DNA from: Spirochaetales bacterium | Lineage (GTDB): Bacteria > Spirochaetota > GWE2-31-10 > MWDO01 | Reading direction: 5' to 3' | DNA: 64,000 bases | Assembly (NCBI GenBank): GCA_017540815.1 | Contig: JAFYAI010000036.1 | Location: forward strand, 3,637-67,636 | Shown: positions 7,105-52,856 of the stretch, one piece after another | Layout: each line of letters opens with the position of its first letter | How positions within the stretch are numbered: the stretch's first letter is position 1 | Made by a program: the position numbers and the translations under genes | The notes under the pieces: generated by a model | Told to the model about the DNA's origin: nothing | Databases searched by the model: none | The model's input: only the letters and a program-made list of their open reading frames with translations

Positions 7105-7133
7105 AAGAGTTCATGCAGGTAGCAGATTCATGC

Positions 7134-7169: not shown

Positions 7170-7191
7170 AGACTATTATTCGGGGTGCGTA

Positions 7192-7704: not shown

Positions 7705-7740
7705 TGTATAGCAATATGCAATAACCAAGCATTAATTAAC

Positions 7741-7775
7741 AAAAAATCGGTTTTGGTCACAAAACCGATTTTTTG
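7741..7775. terminator. Bidirectional terminator between convergent genes
   Basis: aaaatcggtttt ggtcac aaaaccgatttt flanked by an A-run and a T-run. Confidence 0.7.
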
Positions 7776-7785
7776 TTATTCTCTT

Positions 7786-9324: not shown

Positions 9325-9334
9325 ACTTTGCCCC

Positions 9335-22648: not shown

Positions 22649-23830
22649 TTATAACTTTACTACATCGTCGGTTCCGTCGAACTCAGGCAGAAGAGACTGA
22701 CCGAATGTAACTTTCGGACTTTGGATCACTGCAGGATCAAGCGGATTATCAGTCAGGTCAAGCCGAGTGAGGTTGGTGTCTTCCCAGATATATGACGGCA
22801 GATCTGTGATGCGGTTGCCTTTAAGCGAGAGTTTACGCAGCGAAGGCACGATATATTTCATATTATATTGGAATGAAGTATACGCATTATTGTCAAGGTA
22901 TAATGCTTTGAGTGAAGTGAGTCCTGAGAGGGCACTCGGTATAGTCGTCAGTTTATTGTCTGACAGATACAGAGTCTCCAGATTAGGCATCACACATATC
23001 GCAGCCGGGATAAAGCTGATATTGCATGCAGACAGGTTGAGGAGTTTCAGTCCGACCATGAGCTGCATCTCCGGTGGAAAATACCAAATATCGTTGCCTT
23101 CAAGCCGCAGTGAGGTGAGTGCAGTGCAGCGGACAATACTGTCAGGGATCTTGCGGAATGAGTTATATCCGGCATAAAGAGACAGCAGTCTGTTGGTCAA
23201 TATCTGCTCCGGTATGTCACGCAGCTGATTATGCTCGATATTAAGGATCTGGATATTGCGGTTGGTCATATCGAATCGCTTGATCTCATTGCTGCCGAAG
23301 TTGGCTATCCGCAGCTGTTTCAGAGTATTCAGTTCTCGCCCGACAGCAGAGAGTTTGTTATATCCGAGATACAGTTCCTGCAGTCCTGTCATCTTAGTCA
23401 GCACAGGCGGTATCGATGCAATGCGGTTGCCTGTCAGATTCAATATGCGGATATTTTTGAGGCTGTCAGCAGTCATAAAGTCTTCCGACAAATGCTCCAG
23501 TTTGTTGTGTGATATATCGATACGGGCAAGTTTCTCGTATTTAGTCAGATCTATCGCCGTGAAAGCATTATGTGACAGATCTATGCTTACCAGACCTGTG
23601 CAGTGTGCCAAGAGCGGCGGCAGGCTGTCGATATTCAGTCCTGACAGGTCAAGCTCCCGAATGTCGGCGAGTGCCGCTTCGGTTTTTTCACCTGTGACGA
23701 GATTATTCAGTATGTTGTCAATATCCGCATTGCCGGATCTGTATGATGACTCACATGAGCAGACAGATATTATAAGATAAAATGTGGCAGCAATGCAGAG
23801 ACATTTATTCAGAATGTGATACCCATTCAT
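22649..23830 (-). CDS. Secreted/lipoprotein leucine-rich-repeat (LRR) protein
   Basis: Signal peptide plus Cys (IISVCSC). About 12 tandem LxxLxLxxNxL repeats. Confidence 0.7.
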   Translation of the reverse strand: MNGYHILNKCLCIAATFYLIISVCSCESSYRSGNADIDNILNNLVTGEKTEAALADIRELDLSGLNIDSLPPLLAHCTGLVSIDLSHNAFTAIDLTKYEKLARIDISHNKLEHLSEDFMTADSLKNIRILNLTGNRIASIPPVLTKMTGLQELYLGYNKLSAVGRELNTLKQLRIANFGSNEIKRFDMTNRNIQILNIEHNQLRDIPEQILTNRLLSLYAGYNSFRKIPDSIVRCTALTSLRLEGNDIWYFPPEMQLMVGLKLLNLSACNISFIPAAICVMPNLETLYLSDNKLTTIPSALSGLTSLKALYLDNNAYTSFQYNMKYIVPSLRKLSLKGNRITDLPSYIWEDTNLTRLDLTDNPLDPAVIQSPKVTFGQSLLPEFDGTDDVVKL

Positions 23831-26791: not shown

Positions 26792-28027
26792 TTAGATGAC
26801 ATTAAGCCGTGATGAAATGCCGCTGCAAATTTTATCCAGCAAATTATTATCCGCTTTATCATCATTCTGCAATGATGTGACCGCCTGCTCAAAATGTTTG
26901 CCGAGATCTGCTGCTATATCAAATATTACATTCGGAGCAATGTCAATCTTCTGCGACATTAAAATAAAATCTTCTTTATCAATCTTATCCAATTCATAAT
27001 GGTTGCCGATCTTCATAGACAATTTGCTCGTTAGATCAGGATAGATCGCCGTTGAAACGGCATCATACAGCGGAGCTAATTTTGTCTTCTTATCATATAA
27101 AACAGAGTAGTTCTTACTGTGTGCATCACAGTTGCCAATGAGAAAATTGAAAATAATCTGCCGTAAAAATTGCCGGCAATCAATAATCGGGATTGTCATA
27201 TTAGCACGAATGCAGCTGTAAATATCGGCAATACTCGGACCGCCGTCATTTTCATATTTGAGATCATTCATCACACCTAAAGCCTGACAAAAGTCTTCCT
27301 GATGCAGTCGCATAATCTCGGTATCAGTCTGTATGCGGTCATAGCGGCTTACAACGAATATGTCTTTGTCGGCAATATTGATTAGATCAATATCAGGAAC
27401 AGGCAATCCGAGCATCTTCGCCAATCTCATACAGATATATTCATTCTGAGCAAGAGAGCTGAGTTCTCCGTCGCGAGTCGGTTTAAGAATATGCGTAGAA
27501 GGAGCACCGTTAATCGGTAAATGCCATTTGTTATCAAATCTTGCCAAAGCGATTTTTTCCTGTGCTCCGGCTAACGACAGCCGCAATTTGTTGTTTGATT
27601 TAATAAGCGGCTTCTGAGGCAGCTGCTTAATCATAAGCTCCAGATCATTCTCAGACAGGACCTGATAATTTGATTCATTAATTCGGTAGTTATTGGGGGC
27701 AGCCGCATCTTCATCTTCTGATACAACAGAGATCAAACCGGCACATTCTCCGCCTAATATCTCCAATAATTTTATCGTGCTGTTCTCAGAAACTTGGAAA
27801 TATTGAGCAATTTTTCGGCGGGATTCTCCTTCAGGAAGCAGTCCTGCGAAAAAAGGCAGGCATTTTGCCTGAGAATACTCCGCCTTCTGCAGCGGCAATG
27901 ATAATGAGAGAGGTTTTGACTGCGGATCCGACAAATATGTTTCATCATACTGAAATATAACTCCGCGGTTATCTGTAGAAAAAAGCCGCCCTGCTAATTT
28001 TTGACCAAAATAAACATTCAGCGTCAT
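26792..28027 (-). CDS. hipA: Type II toxin HipA family Ser/Thr kinase
   Basis: HipA N-domain (LSLSLPLQ...FFAGLLPEGESRRKIA). Catalytic motif GNCDAHSKNYSVLYD. Confidence 0.85.
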   Translation of the reverse strand: MTLNVYFGQKLAGRLFSTDNRGVIFQYDETYLSDPQSKPLSLSLPLQKAEYSQAKCLPFFAGLLPEGESRRKIAQYFQVSENSTIKLLEILGGECAGLISVVSEDEDAAAPNNYRINESNYQVLSENDLELMIKQLPQKPLIKSNNKLRLSLAGAQEKIALARFDNKWHLPINGAPSTHILKPTRDGELSSLAQNEYICMRLAKMLGLPVPDIDLINIADKDIFVVSRYDRIQTDTEIMRLHQEDFCQALGVMNDLKYENDGGPSIADIYSCIRANMTIPIIDCRQFLRQIIFNFLIGNCDAHSKNYSVLYDKKTKLAPLYDAVSTAIYPDLTSKLSMKIGNHYELDKIDKEDFILMSQKIDIAPNVIFDIAADLGKHFEQAVTSLQNDDKADNNLLDKICSGISSRLNVI

Positions 28028-36287: not shown

Positions 36288-36358
36288 ACGAATTTTACCA
36301 CGCTTTTTGCTTGATAAAATTCGTTTTTTATTGACTAAATCCGATTTTATGCTATAAT
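36288..36358 (+). promoter_or_regulatory. Terminator-promoter cassette, copy 1 (hairpin acgaatttta...taaaattcgt + T6, then TTGACTAAAT-N-TATAAT)
   Basis: 10-bp stem hairpin with T-run, then ttgact, 16 bp, tataat directly upstream of hicA. Confidence 0.6.
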
Positions 36359-36364
36359 AATATT

Positions 36365-36622
36365 ATGTCATCTTGGGATAAATTATTAGAAAAAATTAAA
36401 TCTTTGAATAAAGATATGCGTTTTGCAGAACTGCAAAAAGTCTTGCAAAATTATGGATATGTTATGACTGCACCGCGAAGTGGAAGCAGTCATTATATAT
36501 TCAGGAAAAAAGGTTGTAATCCAATTACAATACCGAAGCATGAACCGATAAAAACAGTTTATGTAAAAATGGTGCGTGAAATTATTGAGACTGAACAGAC
36601 CAGTGGAAATGCGGAGGAGTAA
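36365..36622 (+). CDS. hicA: HicA family toxin (mRNA interferase)
   Basis: 85-aa protein with LQKVLQNYGYVMTAPRSGSSHYIFRKKG...ITIPKH pattern of HicA. Confidence 0.75.
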   Translation: MSSWDKLLEKIKSLNKDMRFAELQKVLQNYGYVMTAPRSGSSHYIFRKKGCNPITIPKHEPIKTVYVKMVREIIETEQTSGNAEE

Positions 36623-36624
36623 TA

Positions 36625-36879
36625 ATGACTGTAGATGAATATATGGAACTGCCTTATAGAATTGAAATCATTCCTGATACAGAAGAGTCGGGGTTTGTTG
36701 CTTATTACCCTGAGTTGCCCGGATGTATTTCGTGCGGAGAGACAGTAACAGATGCTGTTGCAAATATTGAAGATGCAAAACGTGAATGGATTACTGCTGC
36801 ACTTGAAGATGGTATTGTAATCGCCAAACCTGAGAATCGGTATGTTTATTTCAAAAAGATTCAAAGACAGAGTATGTGA
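36625..36879 (+). CDS. hicB: HicB family antitoxin (UPF0150)
   Basis: YRIEIIPDTEESGFVAYYPELPGCISCGETVTDAVANIEDA matches the HicB N-domain; 2-nt gap after hicA. Confidence 0.75.
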   Translation: MTVDEYMELPYRIEIIPDTEESGFVAYYPELPGCISCGETVTDAVANIEDAKREWITAALEDGIVIAKPENRYVYFKKIQRQSM

Positions 36880-37850: not shown

Positions 37851-37914
37851 AACGAATTTTGCCTTAGCAAAATTCATTTTTTTTGTTTGACTAAATGTTG
37901 TTTTGTGGTATAAT
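37851..37914 (+). promoter_or_regulatory. Terminator-promoter cassette, copy 2 (hairpin gaattttgc...gcaaaattc + T8, then TTGACTAAAT-N-TATAAT)
   Basis: Near-identical architecture and motif to the cassette at 36288-36358. Confidence 0.6.
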
Positions 37915-37921
37915 ACAACTA

Positions 37922-37972
37922 AGCCGAACGGCGAAATTTTCCTTGTAGAATGAGAAATTTCGCCGTTCGGCT
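37922..37972 (+). promoter_or_regulatory. Perfect 18-bp-stem hairpin in the 5' leader of dinJ-yafQ (candidate operator or attenuator; no T-run)
   Basis: agccgaacggcgaaattt tccttgtagaatgag aaatttcgccgttcggct. Confidence 0.5.
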
Positions 37973-37995
37973 AAATCTGATATAGGAGATTTAAG

Positions 37996-38202
37996 ATGAC
38001 AATTACATTAAGAAATGTGGATTATCAATTTCTAAATATTATTCAAAGTCTATTGCCGTTATGTCAAAATGTTCAGATGGAGACAGAAGAAGAAATCCCC
38101 AATGAACTTACTATGCAAGTAATTGCAGACAGTGAATCCGGTAAAAATTTAAGTCCTGTCTATACCAATACATCGGATTTTATGGCGGCATTGAATGCTT
38201 GA
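37996..38202 (+). CDS. DinJ/RelB-like antitoxin
   Basis: C-terminal PNELTMQVIADSESGKNL...DFMAALN resembles the DinJ C-terminus. Overlaps the downstream yafQ-like toxin gene by 8 nt. Confidence 0.55.
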   Translation: MTITLRNVDYQFLNIIQSLLPLCQNVQMETEEEIPNELTMQVIADSESGKNLSPVYTNTSDFMAALNA

Positions 38203-38473
38203 TCTTCGCTTTACAGTACAATTCAAGAAGGATTATAAATTAGCTCAAAAAAGCGGTTATGATTTATCAGAATTTGAAACACTTGTAAATCGTTTGCGAA
38301 ATCAGCAGCCTCTTGATGTTAAATACAAAGATCATCCATTGAAAGGTAAATTGAAAAATCATCGGGATTTCCATTTGCATCCTGATTTGGTTGTTATTTA
38401 TCGTATTTGTCAAAATGAGTTAATACTAGAAATGGTTCGTATGGGGACTCATGCTGAATTGTTTAATAATTAA
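38195..38473 (+). CDS. yafQ: YafQ family toxin (RelE/ParE superfamily mRNA interferase)
   Basis: FKKDYKLAQKSGYDL...YKDHPLKGKLKNHRDFHLHPDLVVIYRI...LEMVRMGTHAELF matches YafQ along its length. Confidence 0.8.
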   Translation: MLDLRFTVQFKKDYKLAQKSGYDLSEFETLVNRLRNQQPLDVKYKDHPLKGKLKNHRDFHLHPDLVVIYRICQNELILEMVRMGTHAELFNN

Positions 38474-38543
38474 TCGATAAAATGAAACAAACCAAAAGAA
38501 ATAATTACGCTTTAATAAAATTCCCAAAATTTTCTCTATAAAT

Positions 38544-38572
38544 TTGACAAAATCCGCTGTGTGGTGTATAAT
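38544..38572 (+). promoter_or_regulatory. Sigma-70-type promoter (TTGACAAAATCC... family) for the caspase-gene islet
   Basis: ttgaca, 17 bp, tataat. Confidence 0.55.
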
Positions 38573-38579
38573 TATAGTA

Positions 38580-38766
38580 CAGATATAAGAATCGGTGCGA
38601 AGTCTGAACCCTTTGCACTGATTGAGGTGATTTCTATCCACCATCCTCATTCCATGGGTTGTTGCCGTCGGAAACAATGCCCGTAAGCAGGATGGAGGCA
38701 TTGGTGATTGTTGGTGGATAGGATTACTGTGCCCGGTTCAGCATTCTGCTGTAGGGCAGTCTTGTA
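38580..38766 (+). ncRNA. About 190-nt structured 5' leader (candidate riboregulator) upstream of the caspase-domain gene
   Basis: Nested pairings ctatccacca/tggtggatag and ccatcct/aggatgg enclose gggttgttgccg-tcgg-aaacaatgccc. GC-rich relative to flanks. No ORF. Confidence 0.35.
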
Positions 38767-38790
38767 TTGAGTCTACCCATGGAGCGAGCC

Positions 38791-40923
38791 ATGCAAAAAA
38801 GCGTTTGTCTGTATTTATTTCTATTCATTTCATTTACTGTTTCTTCATTATTATATGCAGAGCCTCGTCACGCATTGCTGATTGCGAATGGGGAGTATAA
38901 GCATTTTGCGGGATTAGCCAATCCGGTTGGAGAGGCAGATATGCTTGCAAAATCTTTGCGGCAACTTGGATTTGAAGTGACTATTAAACAGAATCTCTCA
39001 ATGGAACAAATGAAAGATGCTTTGTTTATATTTGAAGAGACAGTAAAACAATCAGGCGGTATAGCTTTTTTCCACTATGGTGGTCATGCTGTACAGGTCA
39101 AAGGTGAGAATTATCTAATCCCTACAGATGCTGATATTCCTGACGAACGTCGTGTAGATACAAGAGCATTGAATCTTGATGAAGTAATGGATAGTATGTG
39201 CGGCGAGATAAATATTGTAATCCTTGATGCATGCCGAAATAATCCATTGCCGTCAGGTGAAGGACGAAGTGCAAGCCGAGGTCTTTTGCCTATTACACAT
39301 AAACCTCAAAATTCCGTTATTGTTTATTCTGCTCAAGCAGGAGCTGTAGCTCAAGACGGAGTGTTTACACCTATAATGGCAGATAAAATATTAGAGCCAA
39401 AATCATTTTCCAAGATAATTCGTGATGTTCGTGTGGCTGTTAAAGAGAAAACAGTAAATATGCAAATTCCCGGTTGCTATGATGATTCAGATAATGATAT
39501 ATTTCTTGCTGGTATTGTAATGTCAGATGAGCAGAAGAAACTGGAAAATAGTAGAAAAGAATATGATGATCTTGAAAAAGAAATTGCTGATATTAAGGCG
39601 AGAATAAATGAAAAACGAAATGAAAAAGAGAACGAGTTGTCAATGCTTGAACTGCAAAAGAAAGAGGCGGCTGCAAAACAAAAGAAAATCGAACTAGAAC
39701 AACAACAAGAGTTGGAGAATAGACGGCAGGCAATGATCAAGCGTCAAAAAGAAATTCAAAGTGAATATGAGCAAAACCAACAGGAACAAGAATTACAGTT
39801 TATTAAAGTTCAGCAGGCAAATGCAGAAAAACAGAAACTTTTACAACAACTTCAAAAAGATGCAATCTCGATTGATGATATTATGGATAGTAATGATAAA
39901 CTTCAGAATGCGATAAATGAAGTGGCGAGTAATTATAATAATGCAAGGGACAAAGCATTAAGTCAGATTACCTCATTTTATAAACAAAAATTTGATGAAA
40001 TTGTGAATATGAAAAAAGAAAAATGGGAACGCCCCGAAGAATTTACAGAAAGGCAAAATGTTGAACGAACTACATATAGTGATAATGAGAAAGAAGAGTT
40101 GGAGCAAATTAATCAGCGATATAATAATGAAATTAAAGAAAGTACGAAAGAACTGAAACGACAGCTGAAAGAGAACGCTCAAAAAATAATCACTGTAACA
40201 AAAGATGTCAATGTGTTATTCGGAGAATATAATGATGTTGGGGAGTTTTTTCCTGCTTCTGTTTCCTATAATGGTAAATATGTCAGTATAGATGATTCGT
40301 TTGAGATAAGCATTAAAAGTGATAATGTAGCAGAACGGCGTGGCAAAGGAATAGAAATAGAAAATAAAATAAAATCCAATGGCTATGTCGGTGAGATTGA
40401 GCAGTGTTTGTCTGACGGCAAAGCGATGATTAGGAAATATCGTATTATAGACATATCAGATAATTCTGTATTGTTTGAGAAAGAAGTAAATAAAATCGGT
40501 ACAAATGTGCAAATTCAAAAGAAATATGAAGCGGCTGAGAAATATAAAAAACATACCTACGCTTACGGCAGTCTTATAGGCATTGGCAGTGGAATTGGTG
40601 CTGTGTCGCTTACACTTATACCTGTTGGAGCAGCTAATATGGCAGACTGCTATGAGCGTCGGCTTGATTACGGAGTTGGAGTTAGTGTAGCTATTCTTGG
40701 TGTCGGTTTTGGAACGGCTGTTGTATCGGCTATTATGCTTAGTGTGACTAGTGTTATTTGGTATCGTGATATTTCTGCGAATGGTATTAGATGGCAAATA
40801 AAGCGGTATAATTCATCAAGAATGACAGTGAAACAGAAAACCATAGCCACATTATCGACACTCGCTCCCAATGTTCTGTGTGGTGATGGTATTATAGAAG
40901 TAGGAATGAGGATTAGATTATAA
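38791..40923 (+). CDS. Secreted, membrane-anchored caspase-domain (peptidase C14) protein. Signal peptide and caspase domain, then about 150-aa coiled coil, a globular region, and two C-terminal TM helices
   Basis: HALLIANGEYKH...FFHYGGHAVQ (catalytic His) ... IVILDACRNNP (catalytic Cys). KKLENSRKEYDDLEKEIADIKARINEKRNEKENEL... heptad-rich. Hydrophobic C-terminus. Confidence 0.8.
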   Translation: MQKSVCLYLFLFISFTVSSLLYAEPRHALLIANGEYKHFAGLANPVGEADMLAKSLRQLGFEVTIKQNLSMEQMKDALFIFEETVKQSGGIAFFHYGGHAVQVKGENYLIPTDADIPDERRVDTRALNLDEVMDSMCGEINIVILDACRNNPLPSGEGRSASRGLLPITHKPQNSVIVYSAQAGAVAQDGVFTPIMADKILEPKSFSKIIRDVRVAVKEKTVNMQIPGCYDDSDNDIFLAGIVMSDEQKKLENSRKEYDDLEKEIADIKARINEKRNEKENELSMLELQKKEAAAKQKKIELEQQQELENRRQAMIKRQKEIQSEYEQNQQEQELQFIKVQQANAEKQKLLQQLQKDAISIDDIMDSNDKLQNAINEVASNYNNARDKALSQITSFYKQKFDEIVNMKKEKWERPEEFTERQNVERTTYSDNEKEELEQINQRYNNEIKESTKELKRQLKENAQKIITVTKDVNVLFGEYNDVGEFFPASVSYNGKYVSIDDSFEISIKSDNVAERRGKGIEIENKIKSNGYVGEIEQCLSDGKAMIRKYRIIDISDNSVLFEKEVNKIGTNVQIQKKYEAAEKYKKHTYAYGSLIGIGSGIGAVSLTLIPVGAANMADCYERRLDYGVGVSVAILGVGFGTAVVSAIMLSVTSVIWYRDISANGIRWQIKRYNSSRMTVKQKTIATLSTLAPNVLCGDGIIEVGMRIRL

Positions 40924-40971
40924 TAATCAATGGTTAGTTTGTCGTGGGTAATGCATAGTTAGGAGATTTAT

Positions 40972-42852
40972 ATGAAGAAGATTTGTTTGTTATTATTAAT
41001 TACGACTATTACTTTGTCAAGTTGTGTTTATGAAGGATTGAAATCGTTGTATGGTGATGAATGGATTGAAGAGCATACAACAGAAACTGGTGATACTGTT
41101 AATGATGGAGAGAAACAAACACCAATATTGATTATTAAAGATGACACAACTGACACAAGTTCTGAGATTTCTTATACTATTATATTTGATGCTAATGGCG
41201 GCAGTGGTGAGATGAATCCATTAACACTGCATAGTGGGGAAGCAATAACCTTACCGCTGTGTTCATTTATTGCACCAAGGGGGAAGGAATTTTCCTGTTG
41301 GCATGCTTCGGATAATAATTATGCGTCTTATTTTGGTAATGGGACTGTCGTAAAAAACTTGTTATCGGAAGATGGGGCGGTAGTTATATTGTCTGCTCAG
41401 TGGGCTAATTTGCCACAATATACTATCTCTTACTATAATACAAAAAATGCTTATAATGCTAATCCAGTCACATTTGATGAATCAGAATCTATTACTTTAC
41501 AAAGTTTGTCTATGACAGGATATGATTTTCTAGGTTGGTATGATGCTGAGAATGGCGGTACGCAAGTTACAGGCTGGGATGCAGGATGTAAAACATCTGA
41601 TGTTACATTATATGCACATTGTAATGCTCATACATATACAGTTATATATTACGGCAACGGCGGTATTGGGCAAACCAAGAGACAAACCGTATCCTACGGA
41701 GAGAGTTTTGCCCTGCGTGAGAATGGCTTTACAAGAGATGGTTATACATTCATTGGTTGGTGTACCAACAGTAATGGTGGCGGCACTGGATATAGTGCTG
41801 GACAGACTGTATCAAATTTGACTGCTGAAGACGGCGGAATTGTGGAGTTATATGCACTGTGGGAAGAAGATACGACAGATAAATGGAATATTAATAATGC
41901 AGGAAATATTACGCTAAACGGAGAAGAATTTCCGTTTACAAGTTTTGTGCAGGTTATATCTGAACCTGTGACGGTTGTGGGGAGTGAGCCTAATTGTTCT
42001 TATAATATTCCTGTTTCATATTTACCGACTGAACAGTTAAAAGGTGTTTTTGTTGCTGGCACTTCAACAACAATTAATCCATATTGTGTTGGGCGATATA
42101 CAGTGACGGATAAATTATATAAGACAGTAATGCATATAGAAAATGAATCTGATACAGAGATAAGCAAAATATTTCCGGTTATTAAAGTAAATTGGTACGA
42201 TGCTATTACATTTTGTAATAAACTTAGCATATTGGTTGGAAAGCAGACTTGTTATTCTGTAAAAGGGATTGCAGATTGGTTATCTATAAACTATTCAGAA
42301 ATTCCACATACAGGAGATGAAAGTTGGGATGTTAATGTTAATCCTAACGCAAACGGTTATAGATTACCAACTGAAGCAGAATGGGAGTTCGCTGCACGAG
42401 GTGGAGACCCAACAATAGAGGATTGGGATTATTATTATGCAGGAATAAAAACTAAAGGAGATTCTTTGTATCTTTGTAATGTTAAAGGTTCTAGTGGGAG
42501 GTCTATACTAGATCACTTATTATATAAGGTCGGTAGATCAGCTATAGAATCAATAGAATATACATCAATAGGAGGTACTAATGTCGATTATTATAAATGT
42601 TCCAAAGCAACCTCATTGGAGTCTGTTGGATTGAGACTCCCAAATAGATTAGGTATATATGACATGTCAGGTAATGTTGGAGAATGGTGTTGGGATAAGT
42701 ATGATGATAGTAATAAAAGAATATTGCGTGGAGGTAATTATTACGGCTGCCCTTCGACTTACAGTTGTTCTGTTTATTATCATGGATATTACTATGATTG
42801 TTCACGCGGAGAAGGTTGTAGTTTTAGGCTTGCTTATTCTAAGAGAGAGTAA
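40972..42852 (+). CDS. Lipoprotein with Flg_new repeats and C-terminal FGE-sulfatase (SUMF1/formylglycine-generating-enzyme-like) domain
   Basis: Lipobox LSSC. GYDFLGWYD...TLYAHC and GYTFIGWCT...ELYALW repeats. VNWYDAITFCNKLS...GYRLPTEAEWEFAARGG...GIYDMSGNVGEWCWD...ILRGGNY is the FGE-sulfatase signature. Confidence 0.75.
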   Translation: MKKICLLLLITTITLSSCVYEGLKSLYGDEWIEEHTTETGDTVNDGEKQTPILIIKDDTTDTSSEISYTIIFDANGGSGEMNPLTLHSGEAITLPLCSFIAPRGKEFSCWHASDNNYASYFGNGTVVKNLLSEDGAVVILSAQWANLPQYTISYYNTKNAYNANPVTFDESESITLQSLSMTGYDFLGWYDAENGGTQVTGWDAGCKTSDVTLYAHCNAHTYTVIYYGNGGIGQTKRQTVSYGESFALRENGFTRDGYTFIGWCTNSNGGGTGYSAGQTVSNLTAEDGGIVELYALWEEDTTDKWNINNAGNITLNGEEFPFTSFVQVISEPVTVVGSEPNCSYNIPVSYLPTEQLKGVFVAGTSTTINPYCVGRYTVTDKLYKTVMHIENESDTEISKIFPVIKVNWYDAITFCNKLSILVGKQTCYSVKGIADWLSINYSEIPHTGDESWDVNVNPNANGYRLPTEAEWEFAARGGDPTIEDWDYYYAGIKTKGDSLYLCNVKGSSGRSILDHLLYKVGRSAIESIEYTSIGGTNVDYYKCSKATSLESVGLRLPNRLGIYDMSGNVGEWCWDKYDDSNKRILRGGNYYGCPSTYSCSVYYHGYYYDCSRGEGCSFRLAYSKRE

Positions 42853-43078
42853 TTACTTGATAAGATTTATGCGATAGAGGAGTGATGGAAAGAGACTTGT
42901 TTTAAAATAGATTTGTTGAATAAATAATTTTGATAGTTGCAAAAGTTATAACTTTGTGTTACACTTGAAAGAATGCGAATGGAGATATAATCATCGAAAC
43001 GATGATTTAGTTAAAATTTTAAAGGAGATTTTGACTCTAAACTAGTCAAGAGCCTTAAATAATATATAGGAGTATAAT

Positions 43079-43774
43079 ATGGTAGAGTACCTTTGTTGTA
43101 TTAATTGGGATATGTGGAGTGCAATCGGAACTTGTGGAGCGGTGATAGCCGCTGTAATAATTGCTAATAAGCAGAATAACTTGTCTGAAAAGATTGCAGA
43201 CAAACAAGCCGGTCAAGAAGATTTACAGATTAGAATTTCATTGTTTGACAAGCGATATGAGATTTATCAATGCTTTATGAAATATTGGAATATTGCTAAT
43301 AAATATTTTGCAACTGAATGGAATGATCAGATGAACGACAGTTTGATTAAATTATATAACGAATTATTTGATAACAACAGCAGTGATGTTAGAGCCGAAA
43401 TGAAAAGTGAATATATAGATCTTAAAGAAAAGAATGCCATAAAGCCATCTACTCAAGAATTAGCCTATATTCAGCAACAAATATACAAAGAAGATAACAT
43501 TGTTGCAAATAAGGATTCTGATACCGTTTCTCGTATTGCTTTTTGTTTTGATAATATTCCATGTACAGATGATATAAAAGATTTGTTGAGTAAAATAACT
43601 AGAATAATAATAGATGTAGATAAAAATGGAACTACTCAGAAAGAAATATATAAAGACATTCAATCGACTATACAAATAATTCAAAATAATAAAGTTCAAG
43701 AAAAATTAGAAGAACAATTACAAATCTCTTATGATGATTTGAGAAAGAGTAAGAAGAAAAATAAAATAGTATAG
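43079..43774 (+). CDS. Small hypothetical membrane protein (one N-terminal TM), very AT-rich
   Basis: ORF with TM segment SAIGTCGAVIAAVIIA; no recognisable domain. Confidence 0.4.
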   Translation: MVEYLCCINWDMWSAIGTCGAVIAAVIIANKQNNLSEKIADKQAGQEDLQIRISLFDKRYEIYQCFMKYWNIANKYFATEWNDQMNDSLIKLYNELFDNNSSDVRAEMKSEYIDLKEKNAIKPSTQELAYIQQQIYKEDNIVANKDSDTVSRIAFCFDNIPCTDDIKDLLSKITRIIIDVDKNGTTQKEIYKDIQSTIQIIQNNKVQEKLEEQLQISYDDLRKSKKKNKIV

Positions 43775-44221
43775 TTCATCTCTCTGACAACATCTCCCCA
43801 CAGCAACTCAGGGCGGCACCCCAGCTGTGTTTTTGCGACGACATTCGGACTGTCCCCGAATAACTTCAGTGGTTAGAAGATGCACCGCCGCGGAAAATGT
43901 TGTTTATTAACCCCTCTTCGCTTCATCCTCACTCAAATCTTCTGTCAGATTTTTATAATCAAGACGTTCGATTGCAAATAATCCATGTTCAATCTGTTAG
44001 AAAATTTTGCTATTGCACAAACAGCAAAATTTCCATAAATTTTCATTATACTACACTCGTATTTAGCATTAACAGTAGGCGACGGAGCTGACCGACTGCC
44101 GTTTGTCGAAACACATTATCTTTTTGGTTTTTAGAATATTTTACTCATTTTCGGTCTCAAAATAAAAATCCAATATTTTTTTACATATTATGGCAAATTA
44201 TGCTATAATAAAGGAGCAGAA

Positions 44222-45070
44222 ATGGGTGAAAACAAGCAGATAAAGGACAGTTTATTTGTCGATTTGTTTCAAAATGATGTAACTGCGAAAGAGAATTTTT
44301 TGTCTCTGTATAATGCGATTAAGGGAACAGATTTGAAGTCGGAGAATACTGAGATCGTTCCGAAAAGATTAGAGCAGGTTGCTTATCGGTCTTTGTATAA
44401 TGATGTGTCGATGCTTGTAAATAATCGGCTGATAGTGCTGGTTGAACATCAGTCTACCGTGAATGAGAATATGCCGCTGAGATTTTTGCTATATGTGGCA
44501 CATTTGTATGAGGCTATTATCAAGACTCGTGATAAATATCGCAGGACTTTGGTGAAGATACCTACGCCTGAATTTTATGTGATATATAATGGAACAGAAG
44601 ATTATCCTGCGATGAAAGAGTTGCACCTGAAAGATGCGTTTATGGAATTACAGGCAGAAGCGAAACTTGATTTGACAGTAACAGTGTATAATGTAAATAA
44701 GCCGCAGGAATCGGGCATAGTGCAGCATTGTCGAATGCTGAATGATTACTGTAAGTTTATTGAGATAGTTAATGAAGAAAAAGATAAAGGAACGGAAGAA
44801 GGAATAAAACAGGCTTTAGAGAAAGCTCTAAAAATGGGATTGTTGCCAAACTATCTTGAAAGGAAGGTGAGCGAAGTGTATAATTTTTTATTGGGTGAAT
44901 ATGATTATGACACGGATATTGCCGTGCAGAGAGAAGAGGCTTTCGAGCAAGGTGCTTACAATGCAATGAGATCTTCGGCTCAGGCTATGCTTGAAATGAA
45001 TATTCCGATTGATCAGATTATGAAAATTACAAAATTACCAGAGGCAGAGATTTATTCACTGCGGCAATAA
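44222..45070 (+). CDS. Rpn family recombination-promoting nuclease / putative transposase (Transposase_31, PD-(D/E)XK YhgA-like)
   Basis: DSLFVDLFQN N-terminus, LIVLVEHQSTV motif, C-terminal helical MGLLP...E..A...G domain typical of Rpn/YhgA. Confidence 0.7.
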   Translation: MGENKQIKDSLFVDLFQNDVTAKENFLSLYNAIKGTDLKSENTEIVPKRLEQVAYRSLYNDVSMLVNNRLIVLVEHQSTVNENMPLRFLLYVAHLYEAIIKTRDKYRRTLVKIPTPEFYVIYNGTEDYPAMKELHLKDAFMELQAEAKLDLTVTVYNVNKPQESGIVQHCRMLNDYCKFIEIVNEEKDKGTEEGIKQALEKALKMGLLPNYLERKVSEVYNFLLGEYDYDTDIAVQREEAFEQGAYNAMRSSAQAMLEMNIPIDQIMKITKLPEAEIYSLRQ

Positions 45071-45082
45071 TATAACAAACGA

Positions 45083-45130
45083 AAAAACCACAATATTTTT
45101 TGCAACACAAAAAATATTGTGGTTTTTTCA
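45083..45130 (+). terminator. Rho-independent terminator
   Basis: aaaccacaatatttttt gcaacac aaaaaatattgtggttttttc. Confidence 0.85.
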
Positions 45131-45171
45131 AATTTCCTCTTGACAAGCACTCTCTAATATGGTATAAATAT

Positions 45172-45227
45172 ATCGATAAAAAGATACCGATAACTAAATA
45201 TCGATACTAATTTATCCGATAATAATA
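45172..45227. promoter_or_regulatory. Array of four (A/T)T(A/C)(T/C)CGATA half-palindromes at 14-18-bp spacing in the rex leader region
   Basis: atatcgata, ataccgata, atatcgata, tatccgata seen between the putative -10 and the rex start. Confidence 0.3.
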
Positions 45228-45244
45228 ATGCGGAGGTGAGCAGG

Positions 45245-45868
45245 ATGAGTGACATTTCCAAGCGAAGTATTGACAGACTGTCGCTGTATCTGCATTACCT
45301 GCGGGACAAGAAGGAGCAGGGCATTAAGGACATATCGTCGGTGACGATCGCAGGCGATATGAATATCAATGCCGTAACTGTCAAGAAAGACCTCGCCCGC
45401 ATTGCAGGACAGTCAGGCAAACCGAGGATTGGATTTGACATTGAGACGCTTATACATGATATTCAGACGGCACTCGGTTACAACAAATTGGACAATGTGG
45501 TGCTGGTTGGTGTCGGACAGTTGGGACATGTGCTTTTGTCATACAACGGATTCGCAGGATACGGACTCAATATCGTTGCCGGGTTTGATACCGATCAAAG
45601 CAAGGTCGGGACGGTTGTCTGCGGCAAGCCGATATTCCACATTGACAGACTTGCCGATGTTGTGTCGAAATACGATGTCAGGATGGGGATCATAACAGTG
45701 CCGAAAGAGCATGCTCAGGCGGCGGCAGACTGCATGATTGCAGCAGGCATTCAGGGATTGTGGAACTTCGCCCCGACGCACATTAACATCCCTGAGAATG
45801 TGATGATAAAAAATGAAGACTTGGCAAGCTCTCTTGCGATCTTGTCCAATGAACTTAGAAAGAAATAA
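45245..45868 (+). CDS. rex: Redox-sensing transcriptional repressor Rex
   Basis: SKRSIDRLSLYLHYLR winged-helix N-terminus and GVGQLGHVLL Rossmann motif. GGAGGTG RBS before ATG 45245. Confidence 0.85.
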   Translation: MSDISKRSIDRLSLYLHYLRDKKEQGIKDISSVTIAGDMNINAVTVKKDLARIAGQSGKPRIGFDIETLIHDIQTALGYNKLDNVVLVGVGQLGHVLLSYNGFAGYGLNIVAGFDTDQSKVGTVVCGKPIFHIDRLADVVSKYDVRMGIITVPKEHAQAAADCMIAAGIQGLWNFAPTHINIPENVMIKNEDLASSLAILSNELRKK

Positions 45869-49366: not shown

Positions 49367-50296
49367 TTATATTCTTGTTGATACATATAGTCCGAGCTGT
49401 TTGTCTTTGTAATTATACGAAACGGATAGTGAACTTTGCATTAAAAAAGTTGTAAATTTGTTTTTCCTAATGGTATTATATATCCCATGAAGACAGTATG
49501 CTGTGTAATACGGACATGCAGAACATATCATAACAGCAAGTCCTGGGAATATCCCGGCAAATATACCGGCAACAATCATACCATCGTATGCGTCACTGTT
49601 CCCTGTTGCATTATGGACAGCATCTGCGAATCCCATTGCGATACCGCCTCCGCCTATAATTGCCATCCCAAGCATAATCATAACTGTTCCACCGGCAATA
49701 AAAGCGTTGCGTTTGTGTAAAACAGGAATTGGATCATCAGTTTTAAGTTTCCATTTATAGAAATTATTTTGGATAAATACGGTTTCGGAATTTGTAAAGC
49801 CAGGTAAGTTTGTAGATATTCTTGGTTTTAATGAAGATGATATTGTTCTTGCAATCTTCTCTACGGATGTTAAAATCTCTGATTGTGATGAGACAGTATC
49901 TCTTTCAGCGAATACTGCTACACCGGTAGCAACATCAATTCCTCGAACTGTTATGACTAATTGATTCTGAATTTCAGTAATAGAACCGCTTATGACATAA
50001 ACAGCACCTGTAAGCTTGCCTATCTCAACTGCGTTGTCAGAATCAAATTCGTCGTTATTTTGTAAATGCAGTTCATCCGTAATGAGTTTCAGATTTGCCC
50101 GTTCTGTTACAGTAAAGTAGTTATCTTTAATCATCTGTGTCATAAATATCTCTTGCGATGTTTCTGCATATACCTCATTGATGTTGCCTTCCAAAGTAAA
50201 CGGCAAAACAGCAACCGGTTGACCTTTTAAGTTTTTTTTTATCAATAGAGTTTAATAATGATATTGATAACAGTGAAATAATAATGATGAATTGAA
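49367..50296 (-). pseudogene. CsgG/LpoB-like secreted plus membrane protein (paralog of 28374-29324), frameshifted at a poly(A)9 tract between signal peptide and mature domain
   Basis: On the minus strand, AGGGGA RBS and ATG at 50296 encode MKKIQFIIIISLLSISLLNSIDKKK. After the A9 run (plus-strand T9 at 50232-50240) the conserved domain (KNLKGQPVAVLPF...) continues in the -1 frame. Removing one A would fuse them. Confidence 0.5.
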
Positions 50297-50340
50297 TTTT
50301 TTTCATAATGGTCCCCTAAAATTTATTTTTTTGAATTATA

Positions 50341-51996
50341 TTAATACAGTTTAACAGACTTAAGATCCAAAAAGCATTTTTTTGCATAGTTTATTGTATT
50401 TTCAATAGAATGCTTATCGCTCCTAGTTTTTGGAGTCGTTACAGAGTAACGAGAATCACCACATAGGAACATTTCATTGTGATTAGCAGTTCTTTCAAGT
50501 TCAAAGCCGCATTTTTCTAACAACTTTACACAATCTTTGTCTGTTTGTGGTATTTTATCTAATTCTTGAAGGCGTTTATATGTGTCAGATTGTAAAAAAT
50601 CAAAATCAGGATTATTGTCAAATATAGATTTTAATACATGATAAATACGAATAAAACCTTTTTCGTCTTTTTTAGTTCCGCCATTGTACTTTTCATAGCT
50701 TTTTGCTACATTGTAGATTAATCCTTTAACAAAATTTTCGATTTCATTAGGATAAAGAGAATGTTCAGAACATTTGATAAAGATGTTGATGTCTTGATTG
50801 CCATCTCTTTTCTTTTCAAATGCTATTTTATAAGTATTCAGTTTTTCATTTTCTTTTATAAGTTCGTTTATCTTATTTTGTTTTTCCTGTATTTCATAAT
50901 CGAATGTTTTAGGATATTCATCAAATTCGTTTTTGAGATTTTCTAAATCTCGTGTGCGTTTATCTAATTCTTGCTGTATGTTTTCTTTTTCTGCTTTTTC
51001 AGCATTAAGTTCTTGTCTTAGATTTTCGATTAGTTGATCTTTCGTTGTAAGTTTTTCTTCTAATTCGTCAAGTTTCGTTTGCAGATTCTTTTTCTCTTTT
51101 TCTGAGTTGGCAAGTTTAATACTTTTGGCAATATCCTGTATGATTGTCTGAAATGTAATCTTAGCAACTTGTTTTGTAATCGTTTCTGTCTGTGATTTTA
51201 TCTTTTCACTTACTTTTTGCAGATATGGCATTACCATCCCATACCATGTGAAATGTTCATCTCTTGGAATCAGTATGGATAATTTGGAAATTCTATAGAA
51301 ATATTCATAATCTCTAACATTTGCCGGAGCTATAATTGTGCGTTTGTTCCCATAATAGATACCAACAGCGCCGTTATAGGCTGCCCTTCCTCCTGTCAGG
51401 TCTGATAGTGTTTCCGATACAGAATAGTCTGTTTCCTTATAAACGACGGCAATACCAAATAATTCTTCTGCGAGTTTATTTGGATTCAGTAAATATTCAT
51501 TATCTTTTGTTTCGCTTATATATACAACGGGAAGATTATGAATTTTTCCTTTCTGGCAGATTAGATTTGCAAGAACTGTATTGTTTGTTTCCGAATGAGC
51601 TGTCTTGGCATAAATATCCTTATCAAGAAACTGTTCTAAATATTCAAAGATTTTAGGACGGGAAATTTTTCTTTGCTGATTGTCTGTTCTTTCAATCTCT
51701 ATAGTAAAATTGCAGTCAGATCTTTGTATGTCAAAACAGATAGAAGTAATGACTGCACCTTCCTGTAATCTGAATGCAAATGATGTCTCGTTAGGTTTAT
51801 AGACGGATAATACGGTTTTGCTGTCTTTTTGCTCTGTTATGGAAGAAGAGAGTTTCTCGAAAGGGTGTTCGTTAAACCACTCTCGGAGTACAAGAGAAGT
51901 ATTTTTAGATTGTTTACGCCATTGAGATATAGCAGACCAGACTGCTTTTGCTGATACTTTATTCTTTAATGTAAGCTGTGAACGCAAAACTATCAT
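50341..51996 (-). CDS. Large hypothetical protein with central coiled coil and C-terminal HicA-like (YcfA/dsRBD-like) domain, in a low-GC islet
   Basis: C-terminal LLEKCGFELERTANHNEMF...RYSVTTPKTRSDKHSIENTINYAKKCFL aligns to the HicA pattern LLEKnGFvlvR.kGSH...T.P.H...i..gtl..IlKqaGL. Coiled-coil KLDELEEKLTTKDQLIENLRQELNAEKAEKENIQQELDKRTRDLENLKNEFDE. Confidence 0.45.
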   Translation of the reverse strand: MIVLRSQLTLKNKVSAKAVWSAISQWRKQSKNTSLVLREWFNEHPFEKLSSSITEQKDSKTVLSVYKPNETSFAFRLQEGAVITSICFDIQRSDCNFTIEIERTDNQQRKISRPKIFEYLEQFLDKDIYAKTAHSETNNTVLANLICQKGKIHNLPVVYISETKDNEYLLNPNKLAEELFGIAVVYKETDYSVSETLSDLTGGRAAYNGAVGIYYGNKRTIIAPANVRDYEYFYRISKLSILIPRDEHFTWYGMVMPYLQKVSEKIKSQTETITKQVAKITFQTIIQDIAKSIKLANSEKEKKNLQTKLDELEEKLTTKDQLIENLRQELNAEKAEKENIQQELDKRTRDLENLKNEFDEYPKTFDYEIQEKQNKINELIKENEKLNTYKIAFEKKRDGNQDINIFIKCSEHSLYPNEIENFVKGLIYNVAKSYEKYNGGTKKDEKGFIRIYHVLKSIFDNNPDFDFLQSDTYKRLQELDKIPQTDKDCVKLLEKCGFELERTANHNEMFLCGDSRYSVTTPKTRSDKHSIENTINYAKKCFLDLKSVKLY

Positions 51997-52025
51997 ATTA
52001 TACTTCTCCTTTATATACTCTGCAT

Positions 52026-52856
52026 TTAATCTGTAATCTTAAATGCAGAAACCGTTCCGTCATTATCATTCTTTTCAATATCTGCGATTTTACCGGTTAT
52101 GGTTACTTTTTTGCCGGCATCCGCATCAAGCATAGCATCATTATTGGAGTAATATGTAATAGGAATTGCAATCTCACCTGTTGACTGATTGGCTGTTCCG
52201 ACAGTTCCTGTTACTTTATACAGATAGTCCTCATTATCGCTTTCTTCAAGAGATGTAACTGTTACTTCCAGTTTCGCAGTTCTTCCGATAACATTGTTTC
52301 GTTTGAAGAAAGTCTTTACCCAAAGAGCATTTTTTGTTTTGGACAGCCCGTATAAGAACTGTACATCAGTCAAGGCAGAGTTGATATATTCATTATATTT
52401 TGCATCAGGTTCGGAGAGATAATTAGTTAGAATGCCTTTTGCCTGCTTAATCCAATCCCATGCATAGTTTGATTTTGTTCCATCAGACCACGATTGCAAT
52501 ACTTTATAATCATAACTGGCATGTGCGTTTTTAAAATTATCTGATAAATTTATGGTAATTGTACCATCATCTTTTTTTACTATGGTTGCATAATCCCAAA
52601 TATTAACACGATGTACATAATATCCTCTTATAGAACCACCTTCCCATCGCTGATAATTCAATCGGACATCTCTAAGAATATAAGTCTCTTCTCCTTTTCC
52701 GTTTACAGATATATCCGCACTCTCCAAATATCCATAATGTTCCTGACAATACTGATGGATTGCTCCGAAAAGCTGCCGACCATCAGGAACTGTTTGTGCA
52801 TTGATATATAAAGCACACAAACTCAGAATATAAGCGATAATAATTGATTTTTTCAT
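52026..52856 (-). CDS. Secreted hypothetical protein (signal peptide), co-operonic and upstream of ORF 50341-51996
   Basis: MKKSIIIAYILSLCALYINAQ signal peptide; 29-bp gap to the downstream gene. Confidence 0.4.
   Translation of the reverse strand: MKKSIIIAYILSLCALYINAQTVPDGRQLFGAIHQYCQEHYGYLESADISVNGKGEETYILRDVRLNYQRWEGGSIRGYYVHRVNIWDYATIVKKDDGTITINLSDNFKNAHASYDYKVLQSWSDGTKSNYAWDWIKQAKGILTNYLSEPDAKYNEYINSALTDVQFLYGLSKTKNALWVKTFFKRNNVIGRTAKLEVTVTSLEESDNEDYLYKVTGTVGTANQSTGEIAIPITYYSNNDAMLDADAGKKVTITGKIADIEKNDNDGTVSAFKITD

Follow-up and report, generated by a model that had tools for sequence, protein, structure and literature searches.

A tail-bearing caspase homolog and a tethered lipoprotein as a probable two-gene envelope module in a Treponema-like spirochaete

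The present study concerns a stretch of 64,000 nucleotides (the window; contig JAFYAI010000036.1, positions 3,637 to 67,636 of the forward strand) from a metagenome-assembled genome (MAG) of a Treponema-like spirochaete of gut or rumen-type metagenomes. In it a gene for a caspase homolog that is predicted to be exported is followed by a gene for a lipoprotein ending in a domain of the FGE-sulfatase family and then by a third open reading frame (ORF), ORF3. Taken together, the data make it probable that the first two genes form a dedicated protease-plus-adaptor module of the cell envelope, a split version of the single-chain proteins in which a caspase carries a C-type-lectin (CLec) or FGE head. 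The fused architecture is already known, as are the lipoproteins of the TvpA type and the caspase-CLec proteins that are targets of diversity-generating retroelements (DGRs). What is new is that the architecture is here divided over two genes, in an exported form with tail and tether as matched modules, that the heads can be exchanged, that the alleles in this hotspot of defence genes are mosaic, and that the leader RNA is conserved. An earlier account of this DNA made from the letters alone (the sequence-only reading) had drawn the three ORFs at coordinates which are confirmed here (Table 1). It had also named the Clostridia as the lineage to survey, which was not borne out, the organism being a Spirochaetales/Treponema-like MAG. 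Proteins MBR6199211.1 and MBR6199212.1 are NCBI entries of this MAG.

The evidence that carries this reading is a strict association between two segments, namely a C-terminal module of the caspase with two transmembrane (TM) helices (the tail) and the N-terminus of the mature lipoprotein (the tether). In all seven loci with a visible downstream gene (the window and the fetched loci L001, L086, L005, L092, L093 and L094, representing three lineages and six caspase alleles) a tail caspase is followed by a lipoprotein on the same strand, the mature N-terminus of which reads C-[VI]-[YS]-[ED]-[GS]-[LF]-x(2-3)-Y-G-[DE]-E-W-[IM]. The core of this motif, YG[DE]EW[MIL], has exactly seven occurrences in a six-frame translation of 946 kb, and all of them lie directly 3' of tail caspases. 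The motif was not found in the other Flg_new lipoproteins of the window, in the 84 or more loci with tail-less caspases or in 117 other Flg_new/FGE proteins. The two genes are separated by 10 to 150 nt in the different loci and always share a strand. In the window the gap is 48 nt, the two ORFs encode separate polypeptides, each with its own export signal, and no terminator-like site was found between the three genes.

The tail itself is rare. It was found in the 10 closest of the 120 nearest caspase homologs. Among 1.84 billion proteins only three credible representative clusters carry it; the two with full-length members are caspases and the third is a fragment of 123 amino acids. A metagenome scan with an alignment of the tail gave pattern matches, none of which was confirmed. 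Its invariant features are a VGA(A/V)N..DC turn, the sequence LGVGxG and a C-terminal G(M/V)G(I/V)KL.

Past the tether the partner changes its domain from locus to locus. It is Flg_new plus FGE in the window, Flg_new plus LRR_5 in L001 and an Lcl_C-like domain in the L005 group. Tail-less caspases of the same clade carry a C-terminal FGE or Lcl_C domain of their own (the homologs P0010 and P0016 are fused to Lcl_C, and P0013 is a truncated sequence that stops just after an FGE-like motif). The caspases with two TM helices have no head, and the head is encoded by the next gene. The sequence comparison thus points to a Rosetta-stone relationship, and this relationship is made specific by two matched membrane-proximal modules.

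The sequence-only reading had called the neighbours a functional pair, noting that caspase and FGE-sulfatase domains are fused in other bacteria. Such fusions do exist. They make up 20 of the 94 caspase genes in 85 fetched loci and 13 of the 120 closest homologs, and a published survey ranks FGE-sulfatase as the fifth commonest accessory domain of prokaryotic metacaspases, at 4.9% (PMC3501461). A stand-alone FGE gene, on the other hand, is adjacent to only one of the 94 caspases (probably a split fusion) and lies within three genes of only three. The closest relative of the lipoprotein that stands on a long contig (P0124) has no caspase nearby, and in the syntenic locus L001 the partner position is taken by a Flg_new and LRR_5 protein and not by an FGE protein. 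A caspase with a stand-alone FGE neighbour was therefore rejected as a general conserved pair. The idea of a functional pair stands for tail and tether, which go together in seven of seven loci, but not for caspase and FGE domain as such.

It could be argued that the two genes are functionally unrelated and are neighbours only because accessory genes recombine often at this site. Variability of the slot is high, its toxin-antitoxin (TA) cassettes and third gene change independently, and lipoproteins with FGE domains are very abundant in these genomes. However, chance adjacency does not account for a tail and a tether that co-occur strictly in three lineages and in different genomic contexts, with no occurrence of the motif elsewhere in the 946 kb. 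Of all explanations considered here it is the least probable, and we disfavour it strongly.

The first protein has the hallmarks of a C14 caspase, as had been claimed. The HMM search gave a score of 99 bits against a cut-off of 21.4 for PF00656 (E=4e-28), and H99 and C148 are invariant in 47 relatives. The dyad aligns to H415 and C464 of the active human enzyme MALT1 (motifs YAGHG and LDMC), and no solved protein is closer in sequence (E=4e-10). By fold the result was the same. The caspase domain is modelled by AlphaFold2 with a predicted local distance difference test (pLDDT) score above 90, and a Foldseek search with the isolated domain placed MALT1 first (E=3e-14, TM-score 0.74), followed by caspases 1, 3, 6 and 9. 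Judged from its sequence, the enzyme looks catalytically competent, and its signal peptide predicts export; an active-looking caspase outside the cytoplasm, as proposed before, therefore remains the expected product.

By alignment, two of the three S1-pocket positions of MALT1 are acidic in the window protein, D146 being invariant and E48 being present in at least 90% of relatives, and from these residues a preference for a basic P1 residue may be predicted. MALT1 is Arg-specific, and in every partner lipoprotein a Lys or Arg lies one to four residues ahead of the invariant YG of the tether. The conserved element is also situated exactly between the lipid anchor and the variable body. It could be possible, then, that the lipoprotein is a substrate and not an adaptor, and that the caspase cleaves the tether, by which the variable head would be released from its lipid anchor or matured. 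The basic residue does not, however, keep one place relative to the motif, an invariant stretch of 15 residues is longer than a typical cleavage site, and the equally conserved tail would be left without a role. Cleavage would moreover be compatible with docking. We consider this a minority view, with a real but modest chance of being correct.

Alleles of the caspase do not differ in their signal peptide (100% identity), and a comparable N-terminus, with an AxA-like site followed by an invariant E24, is found in 116 of 119 family members. A signal peptide is thus the norm in the clade of exported homologs to which this caspase belongs and, though present as the sequence-only reading had it, is not the unusual feature it was taken for. 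N-terminal TM or signal segments in prokaryotic metacaspases were noted in a published survey (PMC3501461). The relatives end in Sel1, TPR, OmpA, solute-binding, Lcl_C or FGE-sulfatase domains, and the family has at least 1297 matches in the databases. No functional work on exported caspase homologs in spirochaetes was found in the literature. Tandem arrays of two or three exported caspase paralogs were seen in L009 (5953-11825), L013 (5968-10595) and L068 (5047-11082), and such arrays occur in several Treponema, Spirochaetaceae and Bacteroidales MAGs.

The domain is followed by a charged helical stalk, for which a coiled coil of about 150 residues had been proposed. The helical segment is in fact about 220 residues long (246-463) and is modelled as six helices with pLDDT 70-90. 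Of 500 shuffles 130 reach its heptad periodicity, which is therefore not significant, and as between a coiled coil and a single alpha-helix the former is unproven. The stalk is only 25-35% identical between alleles and is missing from short ones. Between stalk and membrane a region of 41 kDa had been expected; the actual domain has about 100 residues, is rich in beta structure and is common to the homologs P0002, P0010, P0013 and P0016. It gave no significant Foldseek or Pfam match, and a fold search with the model of middle domain and tail was likewise not significant (best E=7e-3, TM-score below 0.25). Pfam scans with permissive settings found nothing in the tail, in the middle domain, in the linker of the lipoprotein or in ORF3. 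The N-terminal signal-like segment and the two C-terminal TM helices (597-622 and 626-652) were reproduced by hydropathy and by AlphaFold2.

The orientation of these helices bears on the question whether the enzyme is exported at all. A cytoplasmic abortive-infection effector, with an uncleaved N-terminal anchor and cytoplasmic hairpin flanks, would resemble the caspase/CHAT defence systems. The positive-inside rule favours cytoplasmic flanks, the gene stands in a defence-island context, and there are weak matches to a generic PADLOC caspase model and to an EACC1-type caspase model of NCBIfam. These matches are far below family level (31 bits in PADLOC-DB 2.0; 30 bits against a cut-off of 140 in NCBIfam). 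PADLOC-DB 2.0 gave no match at all for the lipoprotein or ORF3, and PHROGs gave no informative match for the caspase or ORF3. The N-terminus is that of a textbook cleavable signal peptide (n-region with K/R, h-region of 12-15 residues, AxA|E), as in the great majority of relatives, the relatives carry domains of periplasmic type, and the partner is a lipoprotein. A cytoplasmic effector is thus very improbable, and export of the protease is preferred.

The second protein is, as the sequence-only reading stated, a lipoprotein with a C-terminal FGE-sulfatase domain (lipobox L-S-S-C18; Pfam E=5e-23). That reading also placed it in a family of paralogs in the window, which is true of the Flg_new repeats but not of the FGE domain. 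The other exported repeat proteins of the window (12904-15468, 18802-21297 and 22649-23830, with seven Flg_new repeats, five Flg_new repeats plus Lcl_C, and LRR_8, respectively) are large proteins that have no more than the Flg_new repeats in common with the partner of the caspase and lack the tether motif. Lipoproteins combining Flg_new and FGE domains give at least 3134 matches, and the nearest member other than the protein itself is 36-38% identical.

The head had been described as SUMF1-like, but it is of the TvpA-like, DGR variable-protein type and not an enzyme. Of the 255 positions of the profile the Pfam match spans 78-223. Among solved structures the best relative is TvpA, PDB 2Y3C ("Treponema denticola variable protein 1"), with E=4e-26, whereas true formylglycine-generating enzymes (SUMF1, SUMF2 and bacterial FGEs) match only over a segment of about 20 residues around RLPTEAEWE (E 3e-6 to 1e-2). 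With a short motif match only and a non-enzymatic protein as best relative, the identity as a formylglycine-generating enzyme was rejected. An identity as a PorK/GldK/GldJ lipoprotein of the type IX secretion system was likewise rejected on scores far under the NCBIfam equivalog cut-offs (GldK 59 bits against 350; GldJ 28 against 458).

TvpA is a DGR variable protein. The DGR targets of T. denticola are all proteins with FGE-sulfatase domains and mostly lipoproteins; there are two to seven per genome, many of them remote from the core of reverse transcriptase (RT) and template repeat (TR), and some in strains without this core altogether (PMC4891356). In the family of the window lipoprotein a constant scaffold, RGG.W...C.VSYR....P..R...IGFR.V, encloses variable positions rich in N, Y, S, D, C and G, and the tip of the head aligns with the variable stretch. 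Codons of the form NNY make up 88% of the tip against 54% of the whole gene, and the tip is rich in Y, C, S, H, G and D. A bona fide DGR acting on a related protein was found in L035, a locus of a Cloacimonadota MAG, which served as the positive control for the template-repeat search. There a complete DGR (4539-9540) targets a signal-peptide-bearing caspase-FGE fusion of the same caspase family; the variable repeat (VR) and TR form a pair of 134 nt with 23 mismatches, 21 of them at template adenines, and HRDC and RVT_1 genes lie between. A second, non-targeted caspase-FGE paralog is located just upstream of it. Orthocaspase-CLec proteins have also been reported as DGR targets in cyanobacteria (PMC7517822).

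It is tempting to conclude that the window lipoprotein is itself an active remote DGR target, that retro-mutagenesis explains its variability and the low GC of its head, and that the caspase is a mere neighbour. Several findings speak against this, and against diversification of the head in our own account. No template repeat was found in the window by blastn, and in an adenine-tolerant scan shuffled controls performed as well. Among 27 large ORFs of the window outside the block, a set that leaves out a few ORFs near the right end, none had RVT_1. One independently assembled copy of the lipoprotein was sampled, and it is identical, so that active diversification of this lipoprotein is not supported. 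Lastly, several scaffold positions of the tip (W, R, P, IG) are altered too, which fits a relic or a different template; DGRs normally spare such residues. Moreover, the co-occurrence of tail and tether and the exchange of FGE, LRR and Lcl_C heads would go unexplained. An active target with an unconnected caspase is improbable, and we prefer to describe the head as TvpA-like, a possible remote DGR target or relic and not a demonstrated target, in a lipoprotein that is paired with the caspase.

Table 1. Coordinates of the features discussed. Positions refer to the window, except in the last three rows, which refer to locus L035.
Feature	Position	Strand	Basis or remark
HicA/HicB toxin-antitoxin pair	36365..36879	+	Pfam
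Antitoxin-like ORF and YafQ toxin	37996..38473	+	Pfam YafQ_toxin E=3e-29; RelB-YafQ pair at the equivalent position of L004
Sigma-70-type promoter TTGACA-17-TATAAT	38544..38572	+	12/12 consensus match
Structured 5' leader, about 210 nt	38580..38790	+	multi-branch fold; terminator-like hairpin just 5' of the ribosome-binding site
Terminator-like hairpin inside leader, with a U-rich tail after it	38746-38759	+	directly ahead of the ribosome-binding site
ORF1, caspase	38791-40923	+	ATG 38791, 710 aa; identical NCBI entry "MAG: caspase family protein [Spirochaetales bacterium]" with the same start
Sec-type signal peptide, residues 1-23, predicted cleavage LYA|E	38791..38859	+	hydropathy
Peptidase C14 (paracaspase-like) domain, residues 25-240	38863..39510	+	Pfam Peptidase_C14 E=4e-28
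Catalytic H99 (YGGHAVQ)	39085-39087	+	
Catalytic C148 (LDACRNN)	39232-39234	+	
Charged alpha-helical stalk, residues 246-463	39526..40179	+	47% E/K/Q/R, 1 Pro, 1 Gly
Beta-rich middle domain, residues 466-565	40186..40485	+	AlphaFold2 pLDDT 70-88
2-TM tail module, residues 586-710	40546..40920	+	TM helices 597-622, 626-652
ORF2, lipoprotein	40972-42852	+	626 aa
Lipoprotein signal peptide and lipobox L-S-S-C18	40972..41025	+	read from sequence; present in every partner lipoprotein
Tether motif of mature lipoprotein, C-VYEGLKSLYGDEWI	41023..41067	+	conserved
Tether peptide of lipoprotein, CVYEGLKSLYGDEWIEEH			
Three Flg_new (InlB B-repeat) domains	41167..41871	+	Pfam E=2e-25, 3 stretches
TvpA-like FGE-sulfatase / C-type-lectin-fold domain	42067..42831	+	Pfam FGE-sulfatase E=5e-23
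Variable-region-like tip, codons 588-612, NYYGCPSTYSCSVYYHGYYYDCSRG	42733..42807	+	aligns to the DGR-type variable stretch of the family
ORF3	43079-43774	+	231 aa
Terminator-like hairpin 3' of ORF3	43813..43828	+	
Rpn-family PD-(D/E)XK nuclease	44222..45070	+	TIGR01784 53.6 bits, cut-off 52.1
L035 DGR target gene	6093-7802		
L035 VR	7668-7800		
L035 TR	9400-9533		

The block is AT-richer than its flanks, as had been noted, with a GC content of 0.354 in 37996-45100 against 0.446 in the remainder of the window. Inside it the least AT-rich parts are the leader (0.474) and the constant tail of the caspase (0.413). Upstream of the caspase lie HicAB, tyrA and an antitoxin-like ORF with YafQ, and downstream an Rpn-family nuclease, rex and adhE. 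Both of the TA cassettes reported upstream are indeed present, but they are not contiguous, tyrA being located between them; the downstream Rpn nuclease passes its model narrowly (Table 1). The caspase lies between tyrA and rex not only in the window but also in L001, L004, L086 and L091, while the TA cassette ahead of it differs by contig and is YafQ, PIN/DUF3368 or HipBA.

Comparison of these loci revealed a sharp alternation of constant and exchanged segments. The window and L001 share 94.6% DNA identity over the rex-adhE flank. In their caspase proteins residues 1-40 are 100% identical, the catalytic domain is 48-72% identical, the stalk and middle domain are mostly 25-35% identical, and identity rises to 88-98% in the tail. 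The L086 allele has neither stalk nor middle domain. The N-terminal half of the lipoprotein is 53-56% identical to the partners in L001 and L086, and in L001 the head is swapped. Across alleles, thus, leader, signal peptide, tail and tether are constant, and the exported protease and stalk and the head of the lipoprotein are replaced or swapped. The pattern suggests that alleles exchange their exposed parts as cassettes between constant segments, and does not look like a recent insertion. The recent insertion of a mobile islet gained no support, since the block has no att-like or IS-like repeats at its flanks and relatives have a syntenic slot. A horizontally acquired conflict island, as first envisaged, holds in so far as the region is variable and rich in conflict genes, but in view of synteny, mosaicism and the lack of flanking repeats recent acquisition is not supported.

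Other observations were made in the neighbourhood. A 36-nt promoter-like sequence is common to both TA cassettes (36324-36359 and 37880-37915), and a perfect 18-bp palindrome within 37922-37972, 5' of the antitoxin-like ORF at 37996, is likely an operator. A gene of the HipA toxin family is present at 26792-28027 of the window, and HipBA is also the TA cassette 5' of the caspase in L086. A second stretch of low GC (0.30-0.34), on the minus strand at 49367-52856, encodes a CsgG/LpoB-like lipoprotein and two ORFs (551 and 276 amino acids) in which Pfam found no match.

The block has a promoter and a long structured leader of its own, and in both respects the sequence-only reading was right. The promoter at 38544-38572 matches the consensus TTGACA/TATAAT at 12 of 12 positions, is the sole perfect match in 37900-45300 and is invariant in the four syntenic loci. 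The leader has a minimum free energy of -81.3 kcal/mol (z=-3.4), and none of 200 shuffles folds as well. The U-tract of its terminator-like hairpin can alternatively pair with the 5' end of the leader. Promoter and leader are about 98% identical in the window, L001 (952-1167), L004 (6429-6644) and L086 (3108-3323) despite differing upstream TA cassettes and coding sequences, and the leader is more conserved than the core flanks. In its long helix two pairs, 38637/38718 and 38639/38716, show compensatory changes (UA to GC and CG to UA) by which pairing is kept, and two more pairs switch between GU and GC; this covariation rests on two haplotypes only. Rfam 15 gave no match to the leader or window at gathering thresholds and only chance-level matches in a permissive search with the leader (E above 2). 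A nhmmer search over 928 kb of fetched sequence found no copy beyond the four syntenic loci, and a metagenome scan with an invariant 25-mer of the leader found one further short contig, L091 (copy around 700-920). With a single short contig as the whole yield of these searches, the covariation evidence cannot be extended. The leader is a candidate new cis-regulatory RNA of attenuator-like or riboswitch-like character, for which the evidence is suggestive and not conclusive. It contains an upstream ORF of 10 codons (MGCCRRKQCP; 38655-38687) which is probably incidental; in the L086 allele one of its codons carries a non-synonymous change, at a site left unpaired by the RNA model.

The third gene had been described as a tiny AT-rich membrane protein. 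ORF3 does have one N-terminal hydrophobic (TM) helix, but it encodes 231 residues and is related to the C-terminal domain of bSEFIR. It has no Pfam match, and its family counts four members in 5.8 billion sequences. Over residues 28-218 it shares 33% identity (E=3e-31) with residues 163-352 of a SEFIR/TIR protein of L001, which is encoded by the third gene of that locus (4909-5979) at the same genomic position and matches the PADLOC bSEFIR model over its full length (E=5e-74). ORF3 itself falls below that model. In ORF3 a TM helix stands in place of the SEFIR/TIR head, and two other small homologs are alike. ORF3 is absent from the L005 and L094 contexts. Going by these comparisons, ORF3 is probably a defence relative that stands on its own as a single gene, its N-terminal domain having been swapped, and not a third component of the module. 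A three-gene system unlike any described one had been suggested; there is indeed no PADLOC model for the pair, but ORF3 is probably independent of it. bSEFIR is a single-gene system that protects B. subtilis from the phage phi29 (bioRxiv 10.1101/2022.05.11.491447).

A conflict-gene context recurs in the L005 lineage, where the evidence is again by association only. In L005 (113-5795), L092 (697-6410) and L093 (2-5565) the genes are all tightly spaced on one strand, and the L005-type order is a PD-(D/E)XK protein, the 2-TM caspase, the tether lipoprotein with its Lcl_C-like end, two or three small ORFs, an ion-channel gene and a patatin gene. The PD-(D/E)XK protein of this lineage matches the PADLOC candidate PDC-S26 and lies 14 nt ahead of the cassette. 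From such surroundings a role in conflict or defence may be proposed, but it is a less likely claim than that of the module itself and stays below an even chance.

The same proteins could as well serve a surface complex for adhesion or nutrient acquisition, with hypervariability imposed by host immunity or by receptor-using phages and not by a function in defence. An analogy is dentilisin (PrtP-PrcA-PrcB) of T. denticola, an operon-encoded envelope protease that works with accessory lipoproteins. It is an analogy only, since dentilisin belongs to the unrelated subtilisin family and has neither a variable head nor a 2-TM tail. Flg_new, BspA-type LRR_5, Lcl_C and TvpA-type domains are typical of surface adhesins, both protein families are much expanded in Treponema (at least 3134 lipoprotein and at least 1297 caspase matches), and P0124 stands among polysaccharide-synthesis genes. 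TvpA-type lipoproteins have in fact been proposed to mediate interactions with other organisms (PMC4891356). Against this, the surroundings of the module in two lineages include TA, bSEFIR, PDC-S26 and patatin genes. An anchor in the inner membrane, and not exposure at the surface, is predicted for the protease, and no secretion or outer-membrane component is encoded nearby. An adhesion or uptake complex has, in our estimate, about the same modest chance as cleavage of the tether.

The split protease-plus-adaptor module remains the reading we prefer, and the points that weigh against it should be set out together. We infer docking of the tether on the tail from co-occurrence and conservation only. 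The module is confined to a narrow lineage, and three of the seven loci are close relatives of one another. The confidence of AlphaFold2 is low in the tail. The counts of K/R are four before TM1, two in the loop and six after TM2, so that the positive-inside rule disfavours the N-out/C-out hairpin which export needs. To these are added the altered tip scaffold, the identical second copy of the lipoprotein and the failure to find a template repeat or RVT_1 in the window, described above. Lastly, a defence role is argued by association alone, and lipoproteins of the Flg_new, LRR and TvpA types could equally be adhesins.

How such a module might work can be outlined. The protease would be exported and held in the cytoplasmic membrane by the tail hairpin, and the stalk would reach into the periplasm and keep the catalytic domain clear of the membrane. 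The partner, anchored by its lipid, would dock with its tether on the conserved tail, or else have the tether cut by the protease. Docking would provide the protease with a variable ligand-binding head, made of InlB repeats and a TvpA-like domain in the window and of LRR or Lcl_C-like domains elsewhere. Exposed parts would evolve by cassette exchange here and by DGR mutagenesis in the fused relatives, which suggests a changing and probably foreign ligand. More speculatively, capture of the ligand could bring a target to the protease or activate the protease by proximity. Proximity activation is known for MALT1-type enzymes. The structured, attenuator-like leader would control expression. As the exposed parts are hypervariable and the module stands among defence genes, the target would probably be foreign, that is, a phage, competitor or host molecule. 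In its fullest form the proposal is an extracytoplasmic recognition-and-proteolysis device of a kind not recognised before, in which a hypervariable lipoprotein receptor with a lectin-fold or LRR head docks by its tether on the tail of a membrane-anchored paracaspase-like protease, foreign molecules crossing the envelope are detected and cut, and a new leader responsive to a ligand or signal gates expression. In this full form we regard it as unlikely.

Several known systems are close to the locus. The single-chain proteins of caspase and FGE/CLec (PMC3501461; PMC7517822) consist of the same domain families, with the protease first and the lectin-fold head after it. Here, in contrast, the polypeptides are separate, each has its own anchor (a 2-TM tail and a lipid) and a matched membrane-proximal module, the head is exchangeable for LRR or Lcl_C-like domains, and no DGR was found in the window. 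TvpA and the DGR lipoproteins of T. denticola (PDB 2Y3C; PMC4891356) are likewise Treponema-type lipoproteins, and their C-terminal stretch of AAY-derived character may have a counterpart in the tip of the window protein; the window protein differs from them by three InlB repeats, a caspase-linked tether and an altered tip scaffold, and no cognate template repeat or RT was found in the window. MALT1 (PDB 3V4O and others) is the closest solved protease by sequence and fold, shares the aligned dyad and two acidic S1 positions, and is about 22% identical in sequence. It is cytosolic and is activated on a CARD/BCL10 scaffold, whereas the window enzyme is predicted to be exported and membrane-anchored and has no death-fold or Ig domains.

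The cytoplasmic NTP-dependent ternary conflict systems combine a TvpA-like, DGR-associated FGS domain with caspase-like peptidases, an arrangement interpreted as invader recognition (PMC7159879); FGS heads occur there with caspase or trypsin peptidases (Kaur et al. 2020, PMC7159879). Those systems work with MoxR-vWA, STAND or GTPase proteins and EAD adaptors, none of which was found here. For ORF3 only, the likeness is to bSEFIR, by homology to the C-terminal domain of the L001 protein and by the same genomic position, and the difference is the single TM helix that replaces the SEFIR/TIR domain.

Fusions of caspase and lectin (FGE) domains are among the commonest architectures of prokaryotic caspases, and some are DGR targets. 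To our knowledge no such fusion has a known function. The locus offers a genetically separable version, in which a tail of 125 residues and a tether of 15 residues are the candidate interface, and the role of an FGE head for a caspase becomes directly accessible to assays of binding and cleavage and to the exchange of parts. It is also a documented case, in a defence-gene hotspot, of alleles whose exposed parts are replaced like cassettes, and it suggests that in diderm bacteria proteases of the caspase type may work outside the cytoplasm. If the full proposal were true, the pair would amount to a bacterial form of receptor-activated caspase signalling, located in the periplasm and with heads that are swappable or diversified by DGRs, and phage proteins, toxins of competitors or host factors could be among the molecules it cleaves.

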